64,000 nucleotides of DNA from Escherichia coli (lineage in GTDB: Bacteria > Pseudomonadota > Gammaproteobacteria > Enterobacterales > Enterobacteriaceae): NCBI RefSeq assembly GCF_024502345.1, contig NZ_JALDNN010000001.1; one strand, written 5' to 3'. Of the stretch, positions 37,846 to 57,963 are shown one piece after another; position 1 is the first letter of the stretch; every line of letters begins with the position of its first letter. The notes beneath the pieces are model-generated. The model was not told where the DNA came from and searched no databases. It saw only the letters and a list, made by a program, of their open reading frames with translations. Both the position numbers and the translations under genes were made by a program.

Positions 37846-38784
<939 letters not shown>

Positions 38785-38863
38785 CTATCCAACCGAAGTG
38801 TACTATACATTCGGCGGGCCAGTTTAGCACAAAGAGCCTCGAAACCCAAATTCCAGTCAATTC

Positions 38864-40015
38864 TTAATCAGCTTGCTTACGCAGGAATGCTGGGATATCC
38901 AGATAATCCGGCTCTTTCGCAGTTTGCGGCGCATTGTCATTCACGACTTTAGCAACCGGCTTCTGCTCCTGGGTCAGCGGAGCCATCCCGTGCTGCTGGT
39001 AGCGATCCATCACTGGCTGCTGAACCTGCTTATTGGTCACCAGAGTGATTTCAGGACGTTTGTCCATGCCGATACCTGTCGCAACAACAGTTACGCGCAG
39101 CTCGTCATTCATATCCGGGTCAAGAGAAGTACCGATAACCACGGTCGCGTTGTCGGAAGCAAATGCACGGATGGTGTTACCTACCGTTTCGAACTCATCC
39201 AGACGCAGGTCGAAGCCCGCTGTGATGTTAACCAGCACGCCGCGTGCGCCAGACAGGTCGATATCTTCCAGCAGCGGAGAAGAGATAGCCATTTCAGCAG
39301 CTTCTTCCGCACGGTCTTCACCGCTCGCCACGCCAGAACCCATCATTGCGTAGCCCATTTCAGACATTACGGTGCGTACGTCTGCAAAGTCCACGTTCAT
39401 CAAACCCGGACGAGTAATCAGTTCAGCGATACCTTGCACAGCGCCTTTCAGTACATCGTTCGCTGCGCCAAACGCATCCAGCAGGGAGATACCGCGGCCC
39501 AGAACTTTCAGCAGTTTGTCGTTCGGGATAGTGATCAGAGAGTCCACATGCTTGGACAGTTCAGTGATCCCCTGCTCCGCGAATGCCATACGCTTCTTGC
39601 CTTCAAAGTTGAAAGGCTTAGTGACGACAGCAACGGTCAGGATACCCAAATCTTTTGCCACTTCAGCGACGACTGGTGCTGCACCTGTACCGGTACCACC
39701 ACCCATACCCGCAGCAATAAAGACCATGTCTGCACCTTCCAGCGCCGCACGCAATGCATCGCGATCCTCATCAGCCGCATTGCGGCCAACTTCTGGATTA
39801 GCGCCAGCGCCCAGTCCTTTGGTGATACCGCTACCGATTTGAATCGTCTGTCCAACCGCTGTTTTACGCAGCGCTTGTGCATCGGTATTTACCGCGAAGA
39901 ATTCAACACCTTCAATGCGCTCGCGCACCATGTGTTCAACAGCATTACCGCCGCCGCCGCCGACGCCGATGACTTTAATCACCGCGTCATTGGTAAGTTC
40001 CATTGGTTCAAACAT
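38864..40015 (-). CDS. ftsZ: Cell division GTPase FtsZ
   Basis: 383-aa ORF with tubulin signature GGGTGTG. Confidence 0.97.
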
Positions 40016-40075
40016 AGTTTCTCTCCGATTTGTGCCTGTCGCCTGAGGCCGTAATCATCGTCGGCCTCATAAAAA

Positions 40076-41338
40076 TTAAAACTCTTTTCGCAGCCAACTA
40101 TTGAGTCGCTTGATCCACGAGCCAACTGATGCTGTAACACGTTTTTCTACTTCAGCTTCACCGTTAAGATGTGACTCTTTCCCATAGTGAAGCAATCCCA
40201 CCGCCGTCGAATAATACGGCTCCTGAGCATAATCCGTTAAACCGGTAATGTTCAGCGGCGCGCCGATACGCACTTGCGTATGAAACACGCGCTGAGCACA
40301 GGCTGCAAGACCTTCGATCTGCGCTGCGCCACCGGTTAATACAATGCCTGCCGCCAGGTGATGTTTAACCCCTTGTTGGCGAAGCTTTTCCTGCAACTGC
40401 AATATCTCTTCGTTGACCAGGTTGAGCAGCTCGGTATAGCGCGGCTCGATCACCTCTGCCAGGGTCTGACGTTGCAGACTCCGCGGCGGACGACCGCCTA
40501 CGCTCGGCACTTCCACGCTCTCATCTTTTCCAACGATGGAACCCAGCGCACAACCGTGGCGAACTTTAATCGCTTCGGCGTCGCTTGGCGGCGTGCCAAA
40601 GGCGTAAGCGATATCACTGGTCACGACATTGCCAGCATAAGGAATTACCTTAGTGTGGCGCAATGCCCCACCGGTATAAACGGCGATATCCATTGTACCA
40701 CCACCGATATCGACGACGCAGACACCCAGTTCACGTTCATCTTCCGTCAATACCGAATAACTTGATGCCAGTCCGGCAAATATCAGTTGGTCAACTTTCA
40801 GCCCACAACGTTCAACCGCTTTGACGATGTTTTTCGCCATATCGTTGTGACATGTGATCAGGTGCACTTTTGCCTGCATCCGCACGCCCGAAAGTCCTAC
40901 CGGATTCTTGATCCCTTCCTGATAGTCAATCGCATACTCTTGCGGGATCACATGCAGCACACGATGCTCATCGCGCACACGCACCGATTTCGCGGTATGG
41001 ACGACGTTTTCCACATCTTCTTGCGTTACTTCTTCTTCAGAAATAGGCACCATACCAATTTCATTCTGGCAGCTGATATGCTTACCAGAAAGCGCCAGAT
41101 ATACCGAAGAGATCTGACAATCTGCCATCAATTCTGCCTGGTCAATGGCGCGCTGTACGCACTTGACCACGGATTCGAGGTCGTTCACCCCGCCTTTATC
41201 CATACCACGCGACGGGCAGCTGCCCACGCCAATGATATTGACCATACCGTCGGGCAGAACTTCCCCTACTAAAGCGGCAACCTTCGCGGTACCAATCTCC
41301 AGTCCTACTACCAGTTTTCTGTCCGTCGCCTTGATCAT
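40076..41338 (-). CDS. ftsA: Cell division protein FtsA
   Basis: 420-aa actin-like ATPase ORF. Confidence 0.97.
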
Positions 41339-42165
41339 TGTTGTTCTGCCTGTGCCTGATTTTGTTGCTGAGTAGATTCCTCTGGCGGCAAGGGCGCCCA
41401 GCCTACTGCCGCTCCAGAGTCATAACGCAAATCAACGTAGCTAATCCGTTTGCCATCGGTTTGCGCCTGCTGCTGTAAAACCGGATAAAGTTCTACAAAG
41501 CGAGCCAAACGTTTCATCGTATCGCCCCGGCCAAGATTGAGCTTAATATCGTTATTCAGCGTCAACTGCCAGGAACGCCGCGCGGTCATCGCCGCTTCCT
41601 TCAGAGTAAATCTGTCCTTTGCCAGCATCTGCCCCATTTCGCGATAGCCCTGCAACACTTCATTAGCGCTGCCTTCCGGGCCATACAGCATTGGAAGCAC
41701 CTGCTTGCTGGTGCGATCTGGCGGCACGCTGAAGGTGTTTCCTTCCGCGTCTACCATGTGTTGATCATTCCACCGCGCAATCGGCACATATTCAACCAGA
41801 TGAATCTTCAATTCATCAGGCCACTGCTTTCTGACGCTCACCTGCTTAATCCACGGCAGGCGTTGTTCTATTTGCGTCTGGATGATGTTGACATCCTGGG
41901 TCATAAAGGTACCCGGCTCACCCAATGCCAGGATCGACTGCCGGATATCGTCATTACGCGTGTAATGGCGTTCACCGGTCAACACCAGCTTTGAGAGCGG
42001 CAGGCGTTGCGCATCTTCCATCCAGCCCAACACGACCCAGCCGCTCACCAACACTGTCGTTAAAACGGTCAGCAGGAAAAGGATCCCCGCCAGACGCGTT
42101 CCATTATTGCGGCGAGAAGAAACCTCTTCTTCGCTGTTTCGCGTGTTCAGAGCAGCCTGCGACAT
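41335..42165 (-). CDS. ftsQ: Cell division protein FtsQ
   Basis: 276-aa ORF with single TM, overlapping ftsA start. Confidence 0.92.
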
Positions 42166-42166
42166 A

Positions 42167-44555
<2,389 letters not shown>

Positions 44556-44608
44556 TCTTTACGCCATTAACTTCTTAAATTCATACGATGCAAAAGGCAT
44601 CGCTACAA

Positions 44609-45676
44609 TTACGCCCGGGCAGCCCGGCTCACTTCATTTGCCACTCGCTCGGTGGCATCCGGAATGGATGCAGCGCGGGCGCGTTCTGCCATGGTTAATA
44701 AGGTTTCTCGCGACCACCCGGCCAGGGTGTTGGCGACAGCATCCACGCTAAGCTGTGGCTGCTCGATAATTTTGGCTGCGCCCGCTTTTTCCAGCGGTAG
44801 CGCATTCCAGTATTGCTGGCGGTCTTTATGTTGAAACGGCACAAACAACGCCGGTAGTCCTGCCGCGGCGATTTCACTCACCGTTAAAGCACCGGAGCGG
44901 CAAACGACGACATCCGCCCACGCATACGCCGCCGCCATATCATCAATAAATTCCGTCACTTTATGCTGCGGTTGCCCCGCTTCGGCATACGCCTGTTCAA
45001 CGGATTGTTGCGAACCTTTACCGCTCTGATGCCAGATAGTGACTGAATCACCCAGTTTCGCAGCAACCTGCGGCATTGTCTGGTTAAGAATGCGTGCGCC
45101 CTGGGAACCACCCACTACCAGCACACGAACCGGACCTTCACGTCCAGCCAAACGTTGCTGCGGCAACGGCAGCGCCAGCACATCGGTACGCACCGGGTTA
45201 CCCACCACTTCCGCATTAGGGAAAGCGCCTGGAAACGCCTGCATCACTTTGGTGGCAATCTTCGCCAGCCATTTATTGGTTAAGCCCGCAATACCGTTTT
45301 GTTCATGAAGTACAACCGGAATGCCTAACGACCACGCGGCCAGACCACCTGGACCTGATACATAGCCGCCCATACCGAGTACCACGTCAGGTTTGTACGC
45401 TTTCATAATCGCCCGCGCCTGACGCCAGGCGTTGAAGATACGCAGCGGCGCAGCTATCAGTGCTTTTATACCTTTTCCACGCAGACCAGAGATACGAATG
45501 AAATCAATTTCGATGCCATGTTTTGGCACTAAGTCCGCTTCCATACGGTCGGCAGTCCCCAGCCAGCGAACTTGCCAACCCTGAGCCATTAGATGGTGCG
45601 CAACCGCCAGTCCCGGGAATACATGTCCACCGGTTCCGCCTGCCATCACCATTAATCGCTTTCCTTGACCACTCAT
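44609..45676 (-). CDS. murG: Undecaprenyl-PP-MurNAc-pentapeptide UDP-GlcNAc transferase
   Basis: 355-aa ORF, G-loop GGTGGHVFP. Confidence 0.95.
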
Positions 45677-46920
45677 CGTGAACCTCGTACAAACGCCTGC
45701 GCTTTCTCCAGACGCGTTTCATAATCAATACGCAACAGCATCATGATGGCTGTCGACATAATCAGTAAGCTCGAACCACCGTAACTGATCAGCGGCAATG
45801 TCAGACCTTTGGTCGGTAACATCCCCGCCGCCGCGCCTACGTTAACCAGCGCCTGGAAGCTAAACCAGATGCCAATAGAACAGGCGAGAAAACCGGAAAA
45901 ACGGTGGTCAATTTCTAACGCTTTGCGGCCAATCGACATCGCGCGAAAAGCGACGAAGAATACCATTAAAAGTGCCAGCACCACACCGACATACCCCAGT
46001 TCTTCGCCGATAATGGCGAAAATAAAGTCAGTGTGCGCTTCCGGCAGATACTCCAGTTTTTGTACCGAGTTACCTAAACCTTGTCCCCAAAGTTCGCCGC
46101 GACCAAACGCCATCAGCGATTGCGTTAACTGATAGCCGCTGCCAAAGGGATCTTCCCACGGGTTCCAGAATGCGGTAACACGGCGGATACGGTACGGTTC
46201 GGCGAGTATCAGCAACACAACCGCTGAAATGCCCATACCGATAATGGCAATGAACTGCCACAATTTCGCTCCCGCCAGGAACAACATCGCCAGCGTAGTC
46301 ACAAACAACACCACCACCGTACCAAGGTCTGGCTGTGCCAGCAGTAACACTGCCAACACCAGAATCACGCCCATCGGTTTCAGGAAGCCGCGCAGGTTAT
46401 TACGTACTTCGTCGCCTTTACGCACCAGATAGTTGGCGATATAACAAAACAGCGACAGTTTTGTCAGCTCCGCAGGCTGGATACGCAGCAAACCGAGATC
46501 GATCCAACGCGATGCCCCTTTAACCGAGCTACCCACTACCAGCACGATCATCAGCAGGATGATAGATCCGAGCAGCATCGTGGCACTGTAGCGTTGCCAG
46601 AACTCCATCGGCAGACGCAGCGTAATGATCGCCAGAATGAATGCCAGGATCAGATAGACGCCATCACGCTTCGCGAAGAAGAACGGATCGTTGGTTAAGC
46701 GTTGCCCTATGGGCATTGACGCCGAGGTCACCATGATAAAGCCAATCGCCGCAAGGCCGAAGGTCAGCCACAGTAAGGTGCGATCGTACATGATCAGGCT
46801 GTCGGTATCTTTTTCCCGCGAGCCCATCACCCAGCCTTTTAGCGCCGTGGAGATCCAGACCAGGATACTGAATCCTGGCAGGCGCGGCATTTTCAGGCGA
46901 GGGAGAGATAAACGCATCAA
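45673..46920 (-). CDS. ftsW: Peptidoglycan glycosyltransferase FtsW (SEDS family)
   Basis: Polytopic membrane ORF in ftsW position; exact start uncertain by a few codons. Confidence 0.9.
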
Positions 46921-48233
46921 CCTAACTCCTTCGCCAGACGGGCAAACTCATTGCCTCGTTGTTCAAAGTTCTTGAACTGATCAAGGCTGGCACAGGCCGG
47001 GGAGAGCAGAACCATATCGCCCGGCTGAACACGCGGAGCCAGCAAGCGCATCGCCTGTTCCATAGTTTCGGTTTGTTCTGCCACTTCCGGGCGTAGCGCC
47101 GCCAGCTGCGCACCGTCACGACCAAAACAGTACAAACGCACGTTGTCGCCATTCAGATAGCGCGCCAGTGGACTGAAGTCCGCCGATTTACCATCGCCGC
47201 CCAGCAACAAATGCAGCGTGCCGTCTACCTGCAAGCCATTCAACGCCGCTTCCGTACTGCCGACGTTAGTGGCTTTCGAATCGTTAATCCAGCGTACGCC
47301 ATTGTGCTCCAGCACCACTTCAAAGCGATGCGGCAGACCGGTGAAGGTGGTTAACGCTTTCAGGCTGCTGGCGCGCGGCAAACCAGCTGCGTCTGCCAGT
47401 GCCAGTGCTGCCAGCGCATTGGTGTAGTTATGCTGCCCGGAAAGTTTCATCTCTTTCACGTTCAGCACTTTCTCGCCTTTCACTCGCAGCCAGGTTTCTC
47501 CCTGCTGATGATTCAGGTGATAGTCACCCATGTTGACGCCAAAGCTGACGCAGCGTTCATCCGCACCGCGAATCGGCATTGTTAAGGCATCATCAGCATT
47601 AACCACGCAAACTTTCGCGTTTTCGTAAATGCGCAGTTTTGCTGCACGATACTGTTGTAAACCAAACGGATAGCGATCCATATGATCTTCAGTCACGTTC
47701 AGAATGGTCGCTGCTACCGCCTGTAAGCTGGAGGTGGTTTCCAGCTGGAAGCTCGACAGTTCCAGCACGTACAGTTCGCACTCAGCATCAAGCAGCATCA
47801 ACGCTGGCAGGCCAATATTGCCACCCACACCAACGTTAACCCCCGCCGCTTTCGCCATTTCACCCACTAGCGTGGTGACCGTGCTTTTGCCGTTAGAACC
47901 GGTAATCGCCACAATCGGTGCTTGTGCTTCGCGGCAGAACAGCTCGATATCGCCAACGATTTCGATTCCGGCATCAGCGGCAGCGCTTAAGGATGGATGC
48001 GCCAGTGCAATACCGGGACTGGCGACAATCAGATCTGCCGCCATCAGCCATTCATCATTCAGACTGCCCGTGTGGCGTTCTACGGCTTCGGGTAATTTAT
48101 CCAGGCCAGGCGGTGTCATACGCGTATCCATAACGCGCGGCGTCACACCGCGAGCGAGGAAAAAGTCCACGCAGGAAAGCCCGGTGAGGCCCAGGCCGAT
48201 AATGATGACATTTTTACCCTGATAATCAGCCAT
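46917..48233 (-). CDS. murD: UDP-N-acetylmuramoylalanine--D-glutamate ligase
   Basis: 438-aa ORF. Confidence 0.95.
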
Positions 48234-48235
48234 GA

Positions 48236-49318
48236 TTAACGTACCTTCAGCGTTGCCAGACCAATCAGAACCAGCATCAGCGAAATAATCCAGAAACGCA
48301 CAATGACGCGCGGTTCCGGCCAGCCTTTCAGTTCATAGTGGTGATGAATCGGTGCCATGCGGAAAATACGTTGTCCGCGCAGTTTAAAGGAGCCGACCTG
48401 CAGGATGACAGAAAGCGTTTCTACCACGAACACGCCCCCCATAATCACCAGCAGGAATTCCTGACGTAGCAGTACGGCGATAATGCCTAACGCACCACCT
48501 AACGCCAGCGAACCTACATCGCCCATAAAGACCTGCGCCGGATAGGTGTTAAACCACAGGAAGCCCAGTCCTGCCCCGACTATCGCCGTGCAGACAATGA
48601 CCAGTTCCCCTGCGTGTCGCAGATATGGTATATGCAAGTAGCTGGCAAAGTTCATATTGCCGGTCGCCCACGCCACCAGCGCAAAACCACCGGCGACAAA
48701 TACGGTCGGCATAATTGCCAGGCCGTCGAGACCATCGGTCAGGTTTACCGCGTTGCCAGTACCCACAATGACGAAGTAAGCCAGCAGAATGTAGAACAGC
48801 CCCAGCTGCGGCATCACATCTTTAAAGAATGGGACCACCAGCTGCGTTGCGGGCGTGTCTTTGCCGGCAAGGTACAGGGCGAAGGCGACACCCAGCGCAA
48901 TGACCGACATCCAGAAATACTTCCAACGAGCGATCAACCCTTTGGTGTCTTTACGCACCACTTTGCGATAATCATCAACAAAGCCAATAACACCGTAACC
49001 TACCAGCACCACCAACACGCACCAGACGTACGGATTGGACGGGTAAGCCCACAGCAGTACGGAGATCACAATCGCCGTCAGGATCATAATCCCGCCCATG
49101 GTCGGCGTACCGCGCTTGCTGAAGTGTGATTCAGGACCGTCGTTACGCACCACCTGACCAAAGGAAAGTTTTTGCAAATGAGCAATCATACGCGGGCCCA
49201 TCCACAATGAGATGAACAGCGCGGTCAGCAGGCTGACGATGGCGCGAAACGTCAGATAGGAAAAGACGTTAAAGCCGGAATAATATTTGACCAAATGTTC
49301 GGCCAGCCAAACTAACAT
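48236..49318 (-). CDS. mraY: Phospho-N-acetylmuramoyl-pentapeptide transferase
   Basis: 360-aa polytopic ORF. Confidence 0.95.
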
Positions 49319-50670
49319 GTCCCATTCTCCTGTAAAGCGCGTACTACCTCTTCCATGGCGGCACTACGTGAACCCTTAACTAAAATCGTAATTACCTGTT
49401 GCTCAGCAATCAGTGATTTAAGACGCGTAATTAACGCAGTTTTATCAGCAAAATGTTCGCCAACGCCGCTGGCGGTGCTGATAGCATGGCTTTGTTTACC
49501 CACGCTTAACACGCGGTCAATACCAGCAGCTTTTGCCGCCTCGCCCACCTGTACATGGCAGGCTTCGCTTTCAGCGCCCAGTTCCGCCATATCGCCCACC
49601 ACCAGCACGCGGTAGCCCGGCATTTCAGCCAGTACCTGGACTGCTGCAGTCATTGAACCGACATTGGCGTTGTAGGAGTCGTCGAGCAGCAACTGGTTTT
49701 CTGCCAGTTGGATGGGGAACAGACGGCCTGGAACAGCTTTCAGATTTGCCAGCCCCGCTTTGATAGCATCAAGCGTTGCGCCCACGGACATGGAGAGCGC
49801 AGCGGCTGCCAGCGCATTCGCAATATTGTGACGCCCCGGCAACGGCAGCAGAACATCGACGCTACCGGTTGGGGTTTGTAGGGTAAATTCCGTACCGTGC
49901 GAGGTCACATGGATATTGGTGGCGGTGAAATCGCTGTTGGCGGCATTGGGTGAGAAACGCCACACTTTGCGTGAGCCAATTACGCTCTGCCAGTTCAGCC
50001 AGTCGTTGTTGTCGGCGTTCATAATGGCGATACCGTTTTCCGGCAGGCCGCTAAAGATTTCACCTTTCGCTTTCGCGACACCCGCAAGCGAGCCAAAACC
50101 TTCCAGATGCGCCGCTGCCAGGTTGTTGACCAGCGCAGCTTCCGGGCGAGTCAGACTCACAGTCCAGGCTATTTCGCCCTGATGGTTCGCGCCAAGTTCA
50201 ATAACTGCGTAATCGTATTCCGGCGTTAAGCGCAACAACGTCATCGGTACACCGATGTCGTTGTTGAGATTGCCTGCCGTATAAAGCGTGTTGCCACACT
50301 GGCTTAAAATCGCCGCCGTCATCTCTTTAACGGAGGTTTTGCCGGAGGAACCTGTCAGAGCAACCACGCGCGCCGGAACTTGCTGGCGAACCCATGCAGC
50401 CAGTTCACCAAACGCCAGACGCGTATCCTTGACGATTAACTGCGGCAGGTCGATATCCAGCGGACGGCTGACCAGTAGTGCGCCCGCGCCGCCAGCTTTC
50501 GCCTGGTCGGCAAAATCGTGGGCATCAAAACGTTCGCCTTTCAGGGCAACAAACAGGCAGCCCGGCGTCAGTTTTCGGGTATCAGTGGTTACAGCATCAA
50601 GGGTGATATCTGCACCTTGCAGTTCACCGTTGAGAATGTCGGTAAGTTGGCTAAGGGTTACGCTAATCAT
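49312..50670 (-). CDS. murF: UDP-MurNAc-tripeptide--D-alanyl-D-alanine ligase
   Basis: 452-aa ORF. Confidence 0.95.
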
Positions 50671-52154
50671 GCAATCACCCCCAGCAGACGCGCCACCGTG
50701 ACGCGATCGGAGTAGTCCAGACGCTGATTGCCAACAATCTGGTAATCTTCATGGCCTTTGCCCGCGACCAGCACCACATCGTTCTCTTTAGCCTGCATAA
50801 CGGCGCAAGTCACCGCTTCAGCACGGCCTTCCATCACTTTGGCATGTCCGGCATCTAACATTCCCGCCAGAATATCGTTGATGATGGCACGCGGTTCTTC
50901 GGTACGCGGGTTATCGTCCGTCACCACCGCCACGTCAGCAAACTCTTCGGCAATTGCGCCCATCAGTGGACGCTTACCTTTATCGCGATCGCCACCACAG
51001 CCAAAGACACACCACAGCTTGCCCGCACAGTGCAGACGCGCCGCCTGTAAGGCTTTTTCCAGTGCATCCGGCGTATGCGCGTAATCCACCACCACCGTCG
51101 GTTTGCCTGGCGCAGTGAACACTTCCATACGTCCGCAAACCGGTTGCAGACGCGCGGCGGTTTTCAACAGATCAGCCAATGGATAGCCGAGTGCCAACAG
51201 TGTCGCCAGCGCAAGCAGCAGGTTGCTGACGTTAAAAGCGCCCATCAGATGGCTTTCAATTTCGCCATCGCCCCAACTTGAGCTAAAGCGAATCGTCGCA
51301 CCGCTGTCGTGATAGTTCACGTCGATCGCTTTTAACCAGCGTCCGTGACAGTTCGGATTGATATGCTCTTCCATTGATACCGCAACCGCGTCCGGCAGTT
51401 TTGCCAGCCAGCGGCGACCCACTTCATCGTCGGCGTTAATAATCGCCTGACCGCAATGATGCTCAGAATAAAGCAGCCATTTCGCAGCTTCGTAGTGTTC
51501 CATATCACCATGATAATCAAGGTGATCGCGGCTTAAGTTGGTAAAGACCGACGCCGCAAATTTCAATGCCGCCACACGGTGCTGTACCAGCCCGTGGGAG
51601 GAAACTTCCATTGCGCAAAAAGTCGCGCCCTGATCCACCAGCCCCGCCAGCTCATGCTGAACATCGACTGCGGAACCGGTAGTATTTTCTGTCGGGATCA
51701 CTTTCCCAAGCAGACCGTTACCAACGGTGCCCATTACCGCGCTGGTTTCGCCAAGCAGTTGGCTCCACTGCGCCAACAGCTGGGTAGTCGTGGTTTTGCC
51801 GTTGGTGCCCGTTACGCCCACGAGACGTAAATTGTCAGAGGGTTCATGGTAAAAGCGGCCCGCCAGTGCAGATAAACGCTCGTTGAGCTGGCTGAGATAG
51901 ATGACCGGTACGCCGTGCATTTCACGGATTTCACCATCGGTCGCCTCATCTTTCGCCTCTGCAATAATGGCAGCCACACCTTGCGCTATCGCCTGCGGGA
52001 TATATCGACGCCCGTCCGCCTGATGACCTACTACAGCTACAAAGAGATCGCCCGCCGCAGCCACACGGCTGTCGAGTGTCATCTCTCGCAGTGCTCGCGA
52101 AGGTGCGTCTGGCACCCACGGAGCAAGAAGGTCGCGCAAATTACGATCTGCCAC
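50667..52154 (-). CDS. murE: UDP-MurNAc-L-Ala-D-Glu--meso-DAP ligase
   Basis: 495-aa ORF. Confidence 0.95.
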
Positions 52155-53907
52155 CTGTCCCCTCGCCTTGATTAATCACAAATTCATTTTTATCGCCCGT
52201 TGTCAGCGCATCCGGCTCGATGTTCATGGTACGCAATACGCCGCCCATGATGGCACCAAAGACCGGCGCGGAAACGGCGCCGCCGTAGTATTTACCCGCC
52301 TGCGGATCGTTGATAACAACAACCAGCGCGAAGCGCGGCTGACTCGCAGGCGCAACGCCTGCGGTATAAGCAATATATTTATTGATGTAGCGACCGTCCG
52401 GCCCGACCTTTTTCGCGGTACCGGTTTTAATGGCGATACGATAGCCTTTAATCGCCGCCTTCACGCCGCCGCCGCCCGGCAGCGCCACGCTTTCCATCAT
52501 ATGCACCACAGTGCGGACAATGGATTCCGGGAAGACACGTTCACCGGGAACCGGGGGGTCAACTTTGGTAATCGACAGCGGGCGATAAATGCCGTAGCTG
52601 CCGATAGTTGCGTAGACTCGCGCTAACTGTAACGGTGTTACCATTAGCCCGTAGCCGAAAGAGAAGGTGGCCCTCTCTATGTCAGACCACCGTTGTTTTT
52701 GAGGATATAAGCCACTGCGTTCTCCGACCAACCCCAAATTGGTCGCTTTTCCCAGTCCAAAACGTGAGTAAGTATCTACTAACGCTGAGGACGGCATCGC
52801 TAACGCCAGCTTGGAAACACCGACGTTACTCGACTTCTGTAATACCCCGGTCAGGGTTAATTCGCTGTAGCGTGCCACGTCTTTGATTTCGTGGCCGTTA
52901 ATTCGATAAGGAATGGTATTGAGTACCGAGTTTTCCCGCACCACGCCACGTTGCAACGCGGTCATCACCACCATCGGTTTAACCGTTGAACCCGGTTCAA
53001 ACACGTCGGTGATGGTACGGTTACGCATCGCCTCTTTCGGCGTGCCGCTCAGATTGTTAGGGTTGTATGACGGGCTGTTAGCCATCGCCAGCACTTCACC
53101 GGTGTTGACATCCACCAGCACGGCGCTACCAGATTCAGCCTTGTTAAAGGCCACCGCGTTGTTCAGTTCGCGATAAACCAGCGCCTGCAGGCGTTCATCA
53201 ATACTCAGCGCCAGGTTGTGCGCAGCCTGGCTGTCAGTAGAAGAAATATCTTCAATTACGCGACCATAGCGGTCTTTACGCACAATGCGCTCACCCGGCT
53301 GCCCGGTAAGCCATTTATCGAAACTCTTCTCGACGCCCTCAATCCCCTGACTATCGACGTTAGTAAAGCCGATGAGGTGAGCAGTCACTTCGCCGGATGG
53401 ATAATAACGGCGAGATTCTTCACGCAGATGAATCCCCGGCAGTTTCAGTTTTTTGATGTAGTCCGCCATGTCAGGGTTTACCTGACGCGCCAGATAAATA
53501 AAGCGTCCTTTCGGGTTGGCGTTAATGCGGGCAGAAAGCTGATCCAGCGGAATATTGAGCGCATTAGCCAGCGCCTTCCAGCGGTCACCGACGCTGATAC
53601 CGCCAGCGTCATGCACTTCTTTCGGGTCAGCCCAAATCGCTTTTACCGGCACGCTCACCGCTAACGGGCGACCAGAACGGTCAGTAATCATGCCGCGGGA
53701 GGTGGAAACTTGCTGAACGCGAAGAGAACGCATGTCGCCCTCTTTCACCAGCATATCCGGGGAGATAACTTGTAACCACGCTACGCGTCCGAGCAGAAAA
53801 GCCAGCGCCAGGAGAATACAGCCGCATAACAACGCAAAACGCCAACTGATAAAGTTGGCATGTTCTTCCTGACGTTTTGGTTTCTGCGTTTTCGCCGCTG
53901 CTTTCAT
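52141..53907 (-). CDS. ftsI: Peptidoglycan D,D-transpeptidase FtsI (PBP3)
   Basis: 588-aa ORF with STVK, SSN, KTG motifs. Confidence 0.95.
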
Positions 53908-53922
53908 GCGTCGCGTTTATCC

Positions 53923-54288
53923 TTATTTTTGCACTACGATATTTTCTTGTGACGGATCAACATGCTGCATTTGCAGCTTTTCCGTGGCGATCCTTTCCAC
54001 CCGGCTATGGTCGCCGAGCGCATTCTCTTCAAGGATCAGGTTGCGCCATTCAATGTCTAAAGCATCTCGCTCCAGCACCAGTTGTTCGCGCTGAGCGGTC
54101 AGTAAACGGGTATGGTGCGCCGTGGTTACCACGGTCACCGCCGTCAAAATAATGCAAATGAACAGGCAGAGTGGCAGCTTCCCAAATCGCAAAAGATCGT
54201 CACCGATAACACCAGGCAATGCATGGCGCTCGTGGCTTCCCATCGATCCTTTAACTTTGCTTAGAGCTTCTGTCACTCTGCTGATCAT
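53923..54288 (-). CDS. ftsL: Cell division protein FtsL
   Basis: 121-aa single-TM ORF between rsmH and ftsI. Confidence 0.9.
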
Positions 54289-55226
54289 GCGTTCGTCCTC
54301 TCTGCAATACGCAGAACTGAACTACGGGCACGAGGATTCTCAGCCACCTCTTCTTCGCCCGGCATTAACTTGCCTAGTGCTCGCAGCTGACGGCCACCCA
54401 GTTTATTGAGCTGCTCTTCAGTCATCGGTAACCCTGCCGGAACTTGCGGACCGCGGCTGTTTTCACGCATAAAACGTTTCACAATACGGTCTTCCAGCGA
54501 GTGGAAGCTGATGATCGAAAGCCGCCCACCCGGGGCCAGCACGTTGAGCGAACTTTTTAGCGCCTGCTCTATCTCCTCCAGTTCACTGTTTACCCAAATG
54601 CGCACCGCCTGGAAGGTACGGGTCGCGGGATGTTTAAACTTATCTTTCACCGGCGTTGCAGCAGCCACGACTTCCGCCAGTTCTTTGGTGCGGGTCATCG
54701 GCTGTTCGCGGTTACGCTCGACAATGGCGCGGGCAATGCGTTTGGCAAAACGCTCTTCACCATAGGTTTTCAATACCCAGGCGATATCGGCTTCTTCTGC
54801 GGTTTGTAGCCATTCAGCGGCTGACTGCCCACGGGTTGGGTCCATACGCATGTCCAGCGGACCATCGCGCATAAAGGAAAAGCCGCGTTCAGCATCATCA
54901 AGTTGCGGTGAAGAGACACCAAGATCGAGGAGAATGCCGTCGATCTTGCCGATAAGATCGCGCTCGGCAACGTATTCGCCCAGCGCGGAAAAAGGTCCGT
55001 GGATGATGGAGAAGCGCGGATCATCAATAGTCTTCGCAACGGCGATAGCCTGCGGGTCGCGATCGATCGCCAGCAAACGCCCCTCTTCGCCAAGCTGCGA
55101 GAGGATCAGACGTGAGTGACCACCGCGACCAAAAGTCCCATCAATGTAGATGCCATCAGGACGGATATTGAGGCCATTAACGGCTTCATCCAGCAGCACC
55201 GTAGTATGTTTATAGTTTTCCATCAT
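54285..55226 (-). CDS. rsmH: 16S rRNA m4C1402 methyltransferase RsmH (MraW)
   Basis: ORF 54285..55355 trimmed to [16 protein letters not shown] (313 aa). Confidence 0.9.
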
Positions 55227-55227
55227 T

Positions 55228-55686
55228 TTATAGAGACAAGTCCTGCAGTCGCTCCGATAAGTCTCCGGTAGCCAACTGCTCTGCGTCGATATCTTCCTTG
55301 ACCTGTTGATGCCAGGTTGTTTCATCCCACAGCTCAAACTTGTTGAACTGTCCAACCAGCATCACTTCTTTTGTCAGCCCGGCATGTTGCCGCAGTACTG
55401 GCGCGATTAACAATCGACCTGCGCCATCCATCTGACATTCGCTGGCATGACCTAACAGTAGGCGCTGCACACGGCGCTCAACCGGGTTCATGCTCGACAG
55501 ACGCGATAATTTTTGCTCGATAATTTCCCATTCAGGCAGGGGGTAAAGCAGCAGGCACGGGTGATGAATGTCAATGGTGCAAACCATTTGACCGGCAGCG
55601 TTCTCAAGCAGCTGTTCCCGATAACGGGTAGGCACTGATAAGCGCCCTTTGCTGTCGAGATTGACTAACGTTGCTCCCCGGAACAT
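55228..55686 (-). CDS. mraZ: Transcriptional regulator MraZ
   Basis: ORF 55228..55722 trimmed to [19 protein letters not shown] (152 aa). Confidence 0.9.
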
Positions 55687-55700
55687 GCCAGCCTCACCCC

Positions 55701-55730
55701 TTATTCCCACTTTGCCCCACAATTTCCCAC
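55701..55730 (-). promoter_or_regulatory. MraZ operator: three direct GTGGG repeats at 10-bp spacing upstream of mraZ
   Basis: Minus strand reads GTGGGAAATT GTGGGGCAAA GTGGGAATAA immediately 5' of mraZ ATG. Confidence 0.55.
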
Positions 55731-56287
55731 TGAAAGGAGTTTACGGAGCGGAGGAAAAGCTTGTCAAGCCAGTCACAAGGCATACCGAGGTAAAAAACCC
55801 GATGTTTACGGCTAATATCAGCGTTGTTTATTTTACGTCCAACGTGCGAAGCAAATTAACGTTATGAATAGCTGTAAGAAAAAATCCCTCATCGTCATCA
55901 CCGTTTTAAAATGACTCACTATTTTCCACAGCAAATATAAAGTGTCAGTTTGCGACGCGAGCGGCATTTTAGGACATATCTTCCCCGGTTAACAGTCCCT
56001 GTTGCGTCTGTGTGGCGCTTGATGCCAGCGGGTTTGCGCAAAAGCAAAGAAAAGTGTTTGTTAAATCGGCAATTCATCGCCGCATGTAACAAAATAATGC
56101 AAAAACGCGCTGTCGATATCACTTAATTATTGTGAATTTCAGTTGGAGAGTTAATTAACGGGCGGGTTTAAAAGCATTTATCAATAATAGTCAGGAATAG
56201 TCTTATTTACTTTAAGGATATTGATGTCCAGTCCCGTACTCTACGCACCAGAGTGAAATTCACCTGGCGCGTATTTTTGTTCGCAGC

Positions 56288-57292
56288 TTAGCTACGGCTG
56301 AGCACGCCGCGGCGATAGAGATTACGTTTAATGCGCGTTAAACCAGGTTTTGGCTTACGCGGTTCGTCCAGACTTGCCAGGACAATCTCCAGCACACGCT
56401 CTGCGACATCGCGGTGACGTTGAGCCACTGCCAGCACCGGGCACTGTAAGAAGTCGAGCAGTTCATTATCGCCAAAGGTGGCAATTGCCAGGTCAGAAGG
56501 CAGTTTGCCGTCGCGACGCAGCGTGACATCCATTACTCCTTGCAACAACGCAAACGACGTTGTGAACAGCGCCTGCGGCATCGGATGCGTTTCCAGCCAT
56601 TTTTCGAATAACTGGGCAGCCGCCTCCCGCTCATAGCTGTTGGCATACAGGAAATGCACTTCGCGCGGATCATCTTTCCAGGCAGTACGGAAACCTTGTT
56701 CACGCAGGAAGCTGACAGAAAGCTCCGGCAGCGCGCCAAGATAAAGCACCGTCTCGGCGGGAAACTTACGTAACTCTTCCGCCAGCATTTCGGCATCATC
56801 CTGATCGGCACCAACCACGCTGGTAAAGTGTTCACGATCGAGGGCGCGGTCAAGCGCGACAATCGGGAACGGGTCGTTAGCCCAGCGTTGATAAAAAGGA
56901 TGCTCAGGAGGCAACGACGTCGAAACAATAATGGCATCGACCTGACGCTGTAAAAGGTGCTCAATACAGCGCATTTCGTTGTCTGGCTGATCTTCTGAGC
57001 AGGCAATCAGCAGTTGATAACCCCGTTGCCGCGCCTGGCGTTCAAGATAGTTAGCGATGCGGGTATAGCTGGTGTTCTCCAGATCGGGGATCACAAGACC
57101 AATAGAACGTGTGCGTCCAGCACGAAGCCCAGCTGCCACGGCGTTCGGGTGGTAATTGTGCTCACGCACCACAGCCATGACTTTTTCAACGGTTTTGTCG
57201 CTCACACGGTATTGCTTCGCTTTGCCGTTAATAACATAGCTTGCAGTGGTCCGCGACACTCCCGCCAGCCGAGCGATTTCATCCAGTTTCAC
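56288..57292 (-). CDS. cra: Catabolite repressor/activator Cra (FruR, LacI family)
   Basis: 334-aa ORF; N-terminal [25 protein letters not shown]. Confidence 0.95.
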
Positions 57293-57471
57293 AATTGCCC
57301 CTTGCGTAAAATGTAAAAACCATAGCCATTGTACTGGTATGGGTTAAATTCATTAACATCTAAGCGCAGAAAATTAACTGCGGCAACTGCTTTTATTCCA
57401 GGTTCCCACTGATTTCGCAAAAAAAGCCCAACGTGACATGTTGGGCTGTAAATTGCGCATTGAGATCATTC

Positions 57472-57963
57472 TCAACGCATTATTTTATCGCCGCGCGAAA
57501 GTCCGACCACACCAGAGCGAGCAACTTCCACAATTTTCGCCACATCGCGAATCGATGCTAAAAATGCATCAAGCTTATCGCTGGTGCCTGCTAATTGAAC
57601 GGTATAAAGCGAGGGTGTGACATCGATAATTTGCCCACGGAATATTTCCGTATTACGTTTCACTTCGTCACGCCCGTAACCGCTGGCCTGAATTTTCACC
57701 AGCATGATTTCCCGCTCAACATGCGCGCCCTGCCCCAACTCACTCACGCGCAAGACATCGACCAGCTTGTGTAATTGCTTTTCGATCTGCTCAAGTACTT
57801 TTTCATCGCCCACGGTCTGGATGGTCATACGCGATAATGTCGGATCATCGGTTGGCGCAACGGTCAGGCTTTCAATGTTGTAGCCACGCTGGGAAAAAAG
57901 GCCAATCACGCGGGATAACGCGCCTGATTCATTTTCGAGTAAGACTGATAATATCCGGCGCAT
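57472..57963 (-). CDS. ilvH: Acetolactate synthase III small (regulatory) subunit
   Basis: ORF 57472..57993 trimmed to [19 protein letters not shown] (163 aa), ACT domain. Confidence 0.9.

Follow-up and report, generated by a model that had tools for sequence, protein, structure and literature searches.

Three GTGG boxes over the transcription start of mraZ as the probable MraZ operator of the Escherichia coli dcw promoter Pmra

Introduction

MraZ of Escherichia coli K-12 binds a repeated sequence upstream of mraZ and represses the promoter Pmra, as reported by secondary sources that cite Eraso et al. 2014. The R15A substitution in the first DXXXR motif removes the toxicity of MraZ in E. coli. 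The K-12 operator is said to consist of three direct repeats between Pmra and the mraZ gene. Because mraZ null mutants of E. coli reportedly show no detectable phenotype, the physiological weight of this control is presumably modest.

Across phyla, three GTG(G/T) boxes with 6-nt spacers make up the conserved MraZ site, with one subunit of the protein per box. A 2026 cryo-EM study of Mycoplasma genitalium MraZ on a four-box promoter likewise placed one subunit on each box. The cradle motif of each subunit lies in the major groove, where Lys13, Arg15 and Arg86 read TG(T/G), and the ring oligomer must open for DNA binding. The operators of M. genitalium and M. gallisepticum take the form (AAAGTG[G/T]-N3) repeated three or four times (cryo-EM structures 9qlr, 9qlg and 9sx6). 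MraZ forms an octamer in Mycoplasma and, as has been proposed, a dodecamer in E. coli, and M. gallisepticum MraZ has been reported as an activator, unlike the E. coli repressor. In Bacillus subtilis, deleting three GTGG(A/T)G boxes abolishes MraZ repression.

Here we analyzed a triple GTGGG repeat in E. coli DNA, which a first-pass annotation had placed directly upstream of mraZ and ascribed to MraZ autorepression. The whole 64-kb stretch of DNA analyzed is called the window. Its closest described counterpart is the K-12 MraZ operator at Pmra (mraZ1p; Eraso et al. 2014, J Bacteriol 196:2053), which comes from the same species and the same locus and has three repeats with a 10-bp period. The site resembles the Mycoplasma operators in its GTG(G/T) core, its A-rich 5' flank (AAAGTGG in box 3 of the window), its 10-bp period and its overlap with the transcription start. 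There are four boxes in M. genitalium, whereas E. coli has three clear boxes and an in-register GGGG run, and the two MraZ proteins are distant relatives (phmmer E = 1.4e-11). The B. subtilis site shares the three boxes, the GTGG core and the 10-bp period, and its boxes are needed for autorepression of mraZ-mraW-ftsL-pbpB. It differs in that the unit is written as a hexamer, GTGG[A/T]G, with 4-nt spacers and other flanks, and in that it serves a short four-gene operon.

Results

Three repeats over the start of Pmra

On the minus strand, which is the mraZ coding strand, GTGGG occurs at 55730-55726, 55720-55716 and 55710-55706. The matched 25-mer across the three copies is GTGGGAAATTGTGGGGCAAAGTGGG. 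The start-to-start spacing is exactly 10 bp (four-base cores with 6-nt spacers), and 19 nt lie between the last G of the triple (55706) and the mraZ ATG (55686-55684). The claim of three GTGGG copies at exact 10-bp spacing was therefore confirmed, and the interval given for them, 55701-55730, holds all three. Read on the minus strand, the region is laid out as TTGACA(55767-55762) agcttttcctccgctccg TAAACT(55743-55738) cctttcA GTGGG aaatt GTGGG gcaaa GTGGG aataa GGGG tGAGGctggc ATG(55686). Its features are as follows.

55762-55767, minus strand: -35 hexamer of Pmra, TTGACA, found by promoter scan and invariant across Enterobacteriaceae species
55738-55743, minus strand: -10 hexamer of Pmra, TAAACT, found by promoter scan, 18-nt spacer from the -35
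55731, minus strand: probable transcription start, the A of CAG, 6 nt after the -10, deduced from the tssR mutant primers of PMC7876045
55726-55730, minus strand: MraZ box 1, GTGGG, about +2 to +6
55716-55720, minus strand: MraZ box 2, GTGGG, with the conserved 5' flank (A/T)TT, about +12 to +16
55717-55718, minus strand: sigma70-dependent G1p pause, placed from +1 = 55731, inside box 2
55706-55710, minus strand: MraZ box 3, GTGGG, with the invariant 5' flank AAA, about +22 to +26
55697-55700, minus strand: GGGG run, one more 10-bp step past box 3
55692-55695, minus strand: Shine-Dalgarno core GAGG, read from the sequence, 5 nt before the ATG
55228-55686, minus strand: mraZ coding sequence, an intact ORF of 152 codons (152 aa), annotated mraZ in RefSeq genomes

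The strict GTGGG triple occurs once in the 128 kb of two-strand sequence of the window and in none of 100 dinucleotide-preserving shuffles. No second site for the pair GTGGG-N5-GTGGG is present in the window (0.12 expected), and the relaxed family motif GTGG-N6-GTGG-N6-GTGG has a single site there against 0.02 expected. Tandem Repeats Finder called no array in the GTGGG region because the 10-bp units have only about half of their bases in common. Short units and a silent repeat finder are what could be cited for a G-rich sequence that arose by chance or slippage and has no function. As none of the 100 shuffles gave the motif, and as the cores are invariant in 79 sequences from many genera while neighbouring bases vary (see below), such an origin is already contradicted and its probability is practically nil.

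Of the sigma70-like matches across the 19-kb cluster, TTGACA-18-TAAACT scores highest (10/12). TAAACT was mutated as the -10 element of the mraZ promoter by Sun et al. (2021, PMC7876045), and CAG (55732-55730) is the start-site triplet mutated in the same study (tssR primers CAG>GAG and CAG>TAT, supplement 6). Older literature gives the 5' UTR as 38 nt long, or places the start 38 bp before mraZ, and this would correspond to 55724. Canonical spacing from TAAACT is found for 55731 alone. Box 1 begins 8 nt after the -10, and the boxes would span about +2 to +26 if +1 is 55731, with an uncertainty of 7 nt since 55724 is also implied. Whichever of the two applies, the boxes cover the site of initiation and the DNA transcribed first, a classic place for a repressor to bind. 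The description "upstream of mraZ" thus holds with respect to the ATG but not simply with respect to the transcription unit, as the repeats lie 3' of the -10 and overlie both the start and the first transcribed bases.

This position is shared with a second element. The mraZ promoter has a sigma70-dependent, Gre-sensitive (GreB) promoter-proximal pause with a 14-15-nt RNA, observed in vivo and in vitro (PMC7876045). TAAACT, the 6-nt spacer and CAG of the window are identical to the K-12 template of that study. The window promoter thus agrees with the description of a G1p pause promoter (strong -10, 6-7-nt spacer to the start, Y-R(+1)-Y-like start triplet, pause at +10 to +15), with the pause itself taken from PMC7876045. 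The conserved sequence could then be primarily an element of the initially transcribed region for escape and for the pause at +14/+15, with MraZ binding secondary; the validated pause falls inside box 2, where the window equals K-12. We regard this as highly improbable. The study that described the pause (PMC7876045) places its determinants in the -10, in the 6-nt spacer that follows and in the start-site triplet, and none in downstream sequence. Across species, no part of the region is less conserved than this triplet (0.56-0.75 bits). Moreover, a three-fold 10-bp GTGG periodicity is no known escape or pause signal, and like arrays lie upstream of distant mraZ genes with different promoters. 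Because its determinants are assigned outside the repeats, the pause is a co-located feature and not an alternative explanation.

Downstream of the boxes, the Shine-Dalgarno region is kept as GGGTGAGG beside the ATG in nearly all species aligned. With positions numbered from box 1 in ungapped register, each base of the GGGG run at 55700-55697 is G in 73-77 of the 79 sequences. The run could belong to an extended Shine-Dalgarno region, or it could be a duplicated Shine-Dalgarno-like element or a degenerate fourth box that makes a weak fourth contact. In about 20 species (in Buttiauxella, Cedecea, Siccibacter, Pseudescherichia and Dryocola) the distance from box 3 to the ribosome-binding site is longer by some 10 bp. 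Several species with this longer leader retain a G-run in the 10-bp register, and the loci concerned include L056, L058, L059, L062, L066, L071, L072, L079 and L081. An RNA hairpin was dropped as an explanation of the repeats, as the 5' UTR folds no better than its shuffles (z = -0.22) and the repeats are unpaired in the predicted fold. An Rfam scan of 55000-57500 gave nothing above noise, its sole match being osmY RNA (E = 0.16) inside mraZ.

Upstream of the boxes, the 18-nt spacer between -35 and -10 (55761-55744), AGCTTTTCCTC(C/A)GCTCCG, is nearly as conserved across genera as the hexamers, which is unusual for a spacer. The unannotated 600-bp gap between cra and mraZ holds three more conserved islands, at 55986-55927, 55886-55847 and 56100-56085 (minus strand). 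The strongest of them, AAAATGCCGCTCGCGTCGCAAACTGACACTTTATATTT, with 0.95 identity over 20 bp across 79 sequences, overlaps a promoter-like CTGACA-16-GAAAAT at 55948-55921. Covariation support for RNA structure was looked for in these islands and none was found. According to an MPRA preprint, the region of the mraZ promoter has two distinct promoters, one of which may be located within the conserved islands. The MraZ operator sits 3' of both.

Conservation in the Enterobacteriaceae

A scan of species-representative genomes yielded 80 loci from other Enterobacteriaceae, with MraZ proteins of 89-96% identity. Conservation was counted over 79 distinct sequences, the window included. GTGG-N6-GTGG-N6-GTGG is present in 80/80 of the other loci, with ungapped spacing, and starts 43-54 nt before the ATG. 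The strict GTGGG triple is found in 0/80 of them. All twelve GTGG core positions are invariant (79/79, 2.0 bits each), as are the flanking TT before box 2 (79/79) and the AAA before box 3 (AAAGTGG in 79/79). The fifth G is kept in 78/79 sequences at box 1 and likewise in 78/79 at box 2. At box 3 the fifth position (55706) is G in the window alone, and elsewhere it is T in 54 sequences, C in 14 and A in 10, with T in E. albertii. Information falls to 0.3-0.8 bits at the variable positions that follow boxes 2 and 3 and in the 3 nt leading up to box 1; in the 79 sequences, the two bases after box 2 have 0.3 and 0.76 bits and the three bases before box 1 have 0.56-0.75 bits.

The -35, the promoter spacer and the -10 are also nearly invariant and as conserved as the boxes (TAAACT is invariant in a gapped alignment of 78 sequences), so conservation alone cannot tell operator from promoter function. 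Judging from the alignment, what separates the two is the alternation of frozen cores with free spacers. With its 10-bp period, this pattern is the one predicted for a protein reading one helix face. Because cores and flanks are invariant while spacers vary, the recognition unit in the Enterobacteriaceae is put at (A/T)3-GTGG, and the fifth G of box 3 appears dispensable. This unit is close to the Mollicutes site AAAGTG(G/T). GTGGG as the motif, as first annotated, therefore needs rewording: three copies are present in the window, but the conserved unit is GTGG with an A/T-rich 5' flank.

One record titled Chryseobacterium sp. 18061 (L024, CACSKA010000010.1) carries an enterobacterial cra-mraZ region. 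Its displayed promoter-operator stretch does not differ from that of Citrobacter sp. 18056 (L022), a record of the same study, and the assembly is probably mislabelled or contaminated.

Variation within E. coli

The window differs from K-12 MG1655 by 11 substitutions in 641 bp of intergenic DNA. No difference is found in the -35 or from the -10 through the ATG, a stretch that takes in the start region, the boxes and the ribosome-binding site. One substitution lies in the promoter spacer at 55751 (C in the window, A in K-12) and the other 10 are farther upstream. Nothing functional differs from the K-12 operator.

The cra-mraZ region was found in 5,423 of 5,426 complete E. coli genomes, annotated as cra / mraZ / rsmH / ftsL / ftsI. 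Over the 59 bp that run from the -10 to the ATG, 4,833 of these genomes show the sequence of the window unchanged. A second haplotype, which includes ST131, accounts for 547 genomes and has as its sole change C>T at 55732, just before box 1. The two haplotypes together make up 5,380/5,423 genomes, and all three boxes are intact in both. A version of box 3 with the E. albertii-type GTGGT was matched by no E. coli genome searched. Natural variation in the roughly 5,400 E. coli genomes thus keeps out of the boxes almost entirely.

Some records stand apart. In E. coli WS3294A (L086, NZ_CP035819.1), one genome of the 5,423, a 5-bp deletion at about 55732-55728 takes out the transcription start together with the GTG of box 1, and the record represents a natural operator mutant or else an error of assembly. 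The chromosomal cra-mraZ-dcw region also occurs in three records that are labelled as plasmids. A 701-bp intergenic query was matched at 99% identity or more in only 92 genomes, as against 2,715 genomes for the 19.8-kb cluster at the same level, which makes the window's intergenic haplotype a minority type.

A G-quadruplex motif over the boxes

The minus strand at 55728-55697 reads GGG-N7-GGGG-N6-GGG-N5-GGGG, that is, four tracts of at least three G with loops of 1-7 nt, which is a canonical G-quadruplex (G4) motif. It is produced by G55706 together with the in-register GGGG, and extends over the MraZ boxes and the sigma70 pause site onto the edge of the ribosome-binding region. In Staphylococcus aureus, a functional G4 downstream of PmraZ was reported in 2025, and G4-forming motifs were claimed to be conserved in Gram-positive and Gram-negative mraZ promoters (PMC11796246). 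The S. aureus region is like the window in being G-rich, with at least four G-tracts directly 3' of the mraZ promoter. The E. coli motif differs in that it hangs on one lineage-specific base and is predicted to be barely stable.

The repeats might accordingly act mainly as a G4, in non-template DNA or in the 5' UTR RNA, that hinders mraZ transcription or translation. Besides the S. aureus precedent, the canonical fit of 55728-55697 and its 25-nt G4Hunter score of 1.68, the top score of the window, argue for this. Still, we consider it very unlikely. The canonical motif is present in only 1/81 enterobacterial upstream regions, namely the window itself, and is confined to E. coli, since at the other loci the G-tract of box 3 stops at GG and continues with T, C or A. 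At least 5,380/5,423 E. coli genomes have the fifth G of box 3 (55706), as against 0/80 other Enterobacteriaceae species. The window has two canonical G4 motifs against 0.68 +/- 0.86 expected, which is no enrichment. The predicted stability is marginal: the isolated 34-mer folds at -2.0 kcal/mol, and the G4 is absent from the minimum-energy fold of the 75-nt UTR, where the fourth G-tract is paired in a hairpin. In addition, the invariant T of GTGG and the A/T flanks are needless for a quadruplex, but can be read by a protein.

A further role for G55706 can be imagined within the MraZ operator. This base could add an E. coli-specific layer of control through a transcription-induced non-template quadruplex, an altered affinity for MraZ or a contact of a fourth subunit at GGGG. 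We think this unlikely.

The MraZ protein and distant mraZ genes

The protein encoded next to the repeats matches PF02381 in two stretches (Pfam, E = 4.2e-47), as a two-domain SpoVT/AbrB-like protein does, and is homologous to solved MraZ structures. It has two DXXXR motifs, DSKGR at residues 11-15 and DGAGR at 87-91, which align with DNKNR and DSANR of M. genitalium MraZ. Its K13, R15 and R91 align with the M. genitalium contact residues Lys13, Arg15 and Arg86. The gene is the first in the dcw cluster and is followed by rsmH (mraW), in the order mraZ-rsmH-ftsL-ftsI-...-ftsZ-lpxC.

Eight MraZ representatives of 63-36% identity were taken from a representative library with contig look-ups. An rsmH-type gene (PF01795), with ftsL, comes next in 6/8 of these distant loci, which are those long enough to type. 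Upstream of mraZ, the full 10-bp GTGG array is found in 3/8, one of them with four boxes, and at least a GTGG pair in another 3/8, for which the chance level is about 1% per 220-bp stretch. One contig ends at the pair, and one pair has a degenerate GTGC box in register. A regular GTGG array was not seen upstream in the remaining 2/8.

Direct repeats of about 10-11 bp are typical of OmpR/PhoB-type regulators, and MtrA is reported to be linked to cell-wall genes in Actinobacteria. The repeats could on these grounds be the site of a different regulator, for instance a winged-helix response regulator reading 10-bp direct repeats. This is extremely unlikely, given that the GTG(G/T) core with a 6-nt spacer is the MraZ site defined structurally and genetically in three phyla and that the array co-occurs with mraZ in distant genomes. 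No such regulator is described for E. coli Pmra in the literature found.

Reach of control in the dcw cluster

The genes that follow mraZ in the window are as follows.

43080-55226, minus strand: rsmH, ftsL, ftsI, murE, murF, mraY, murD, ftsW, murG and murC, reported to be co-repressed with mraZ from Pmra
37846-43087, minus strand: ddlB, ftsQ, ftsA, ftsZ and lpxC, intact ORFs, mainly with their own promoters according to the literature

The sixteen genes from mraZ to lpxC are all intact and on the minus strand. Eight of their 15 junctions overlap (-1 to -14 nt) and 3 more have gaps of 1-2 nt. Within rsmH-murC, the ORFs are intact, with tight or overlapping junctions of -4, -14, -4, -7, -1 and -4 nt. 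The first-pass description of a cluster entirely on the minus strand, with many overlapping stops and starts, is borne out by these figures.

The same annotation had put the whole cluster from mraZ to ftsZ under this control point, which is overstated. Pmra is tied to the first nine genes in the literature, and a secondary source that cites Eraso et al. 2014 reports repression by MraZ for the first 11 genes, mraZ to murC. For ftsZ, transcription reportedly comes for the most part from promoters of the ddlB-ftsA region and only partly from distal upstream transcripts (Flardh 1997; de la Fuente 2001). One source holds that Pmra control "may" extend as far as ftsZ. A scan for terminator-like sites inside the cluster gave 22, against 21.1 in shuffles, by which read-through to ftsZ is neither supported nor excluded. 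The reported reach is thus mraZ-murC, with proximal promoters of its own for ftsZ, and the MraZ operator controls mainly the first part of the cluster.

Discussion

Taken together, the three repeats are very probably the MraZ operator of the dcw promoter Pmra, a reading drawn from comparison of sequences. The site has at least three direct repeats with a GTG(G/T) core and a 10-bp period of the four-base cores. It is located at the mraZ/dcw promoter, at or just 3' of the transcription start, and is conserved at orthologous loci with cores tighter than spacers. The MraZ operator is supported because the motif is unique and non-random in the window, because the window equals K-12 from the -10 through the ATG, and because the GTGG cores are invariant in 79 sequences. 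Further support comes from the boxes kept in both main E. coli haplotypes (5,380/5,423) and from the GTGG array or pair carried by 6/8 distant mraZ genes. The adjoining protein qualifies as MraZ (PF02381 twice, DXXXR, K13/R15/R91, head of the cluster), and the boxes stand immediately 3' of TTGACA-18-TAAACT, both of which speak for the same reading. The match to the MraZ binding mode and to autorepression of the dcw promoter, proposed at the outset, holds up, as the sequence is that of K-12, where binding and Pmra repression are published, according to secondary sources. The identification of the MraZ operator had already been published for E. coli, and the current understanding is unchanged.

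A mechanism can be proposed by analogy with the M. genitalium complex. Each box would present its GTGG core and A/T-rich 5' flank in successive major grooves on one helix face, in keeping with the 10-bp period. One subunit of an opened MraZ ring would sit on each box with its cradle motif inserted, and neighbouring subunits would bind cooperatively. By correspondence, the contact residues in E. coli would be K13, R15 and R91. Bound MraZ would fill DNA that RNA polymerase needs for the open complex and for promoter escape, presumably by steric exclusion; this obstruction would follow from boxes at about +2 to +26 that begin 8 nt past the -10. Transcripts from any upstream promoter would be blocked as well. 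The outcome would be negative feedback on mraZ-rsmH-ftsL-ftsI and the following mur and fts genes, and the effect would fade towards ftsZ because ftsZ has its own promoters.

The MraZ operator is the one known transcriptional switch heading the division and cell-wall cluster of E. coli. A correct call anchors the annotation of Pmra, of its start and of the mraZ-rsmH-ftsL-ftsI transcription unit. What our analysis adds is a sharper recognition unit in the Enterobacteriaceae, an invariant GTGG that would be read together with its TT or AAA flanks.
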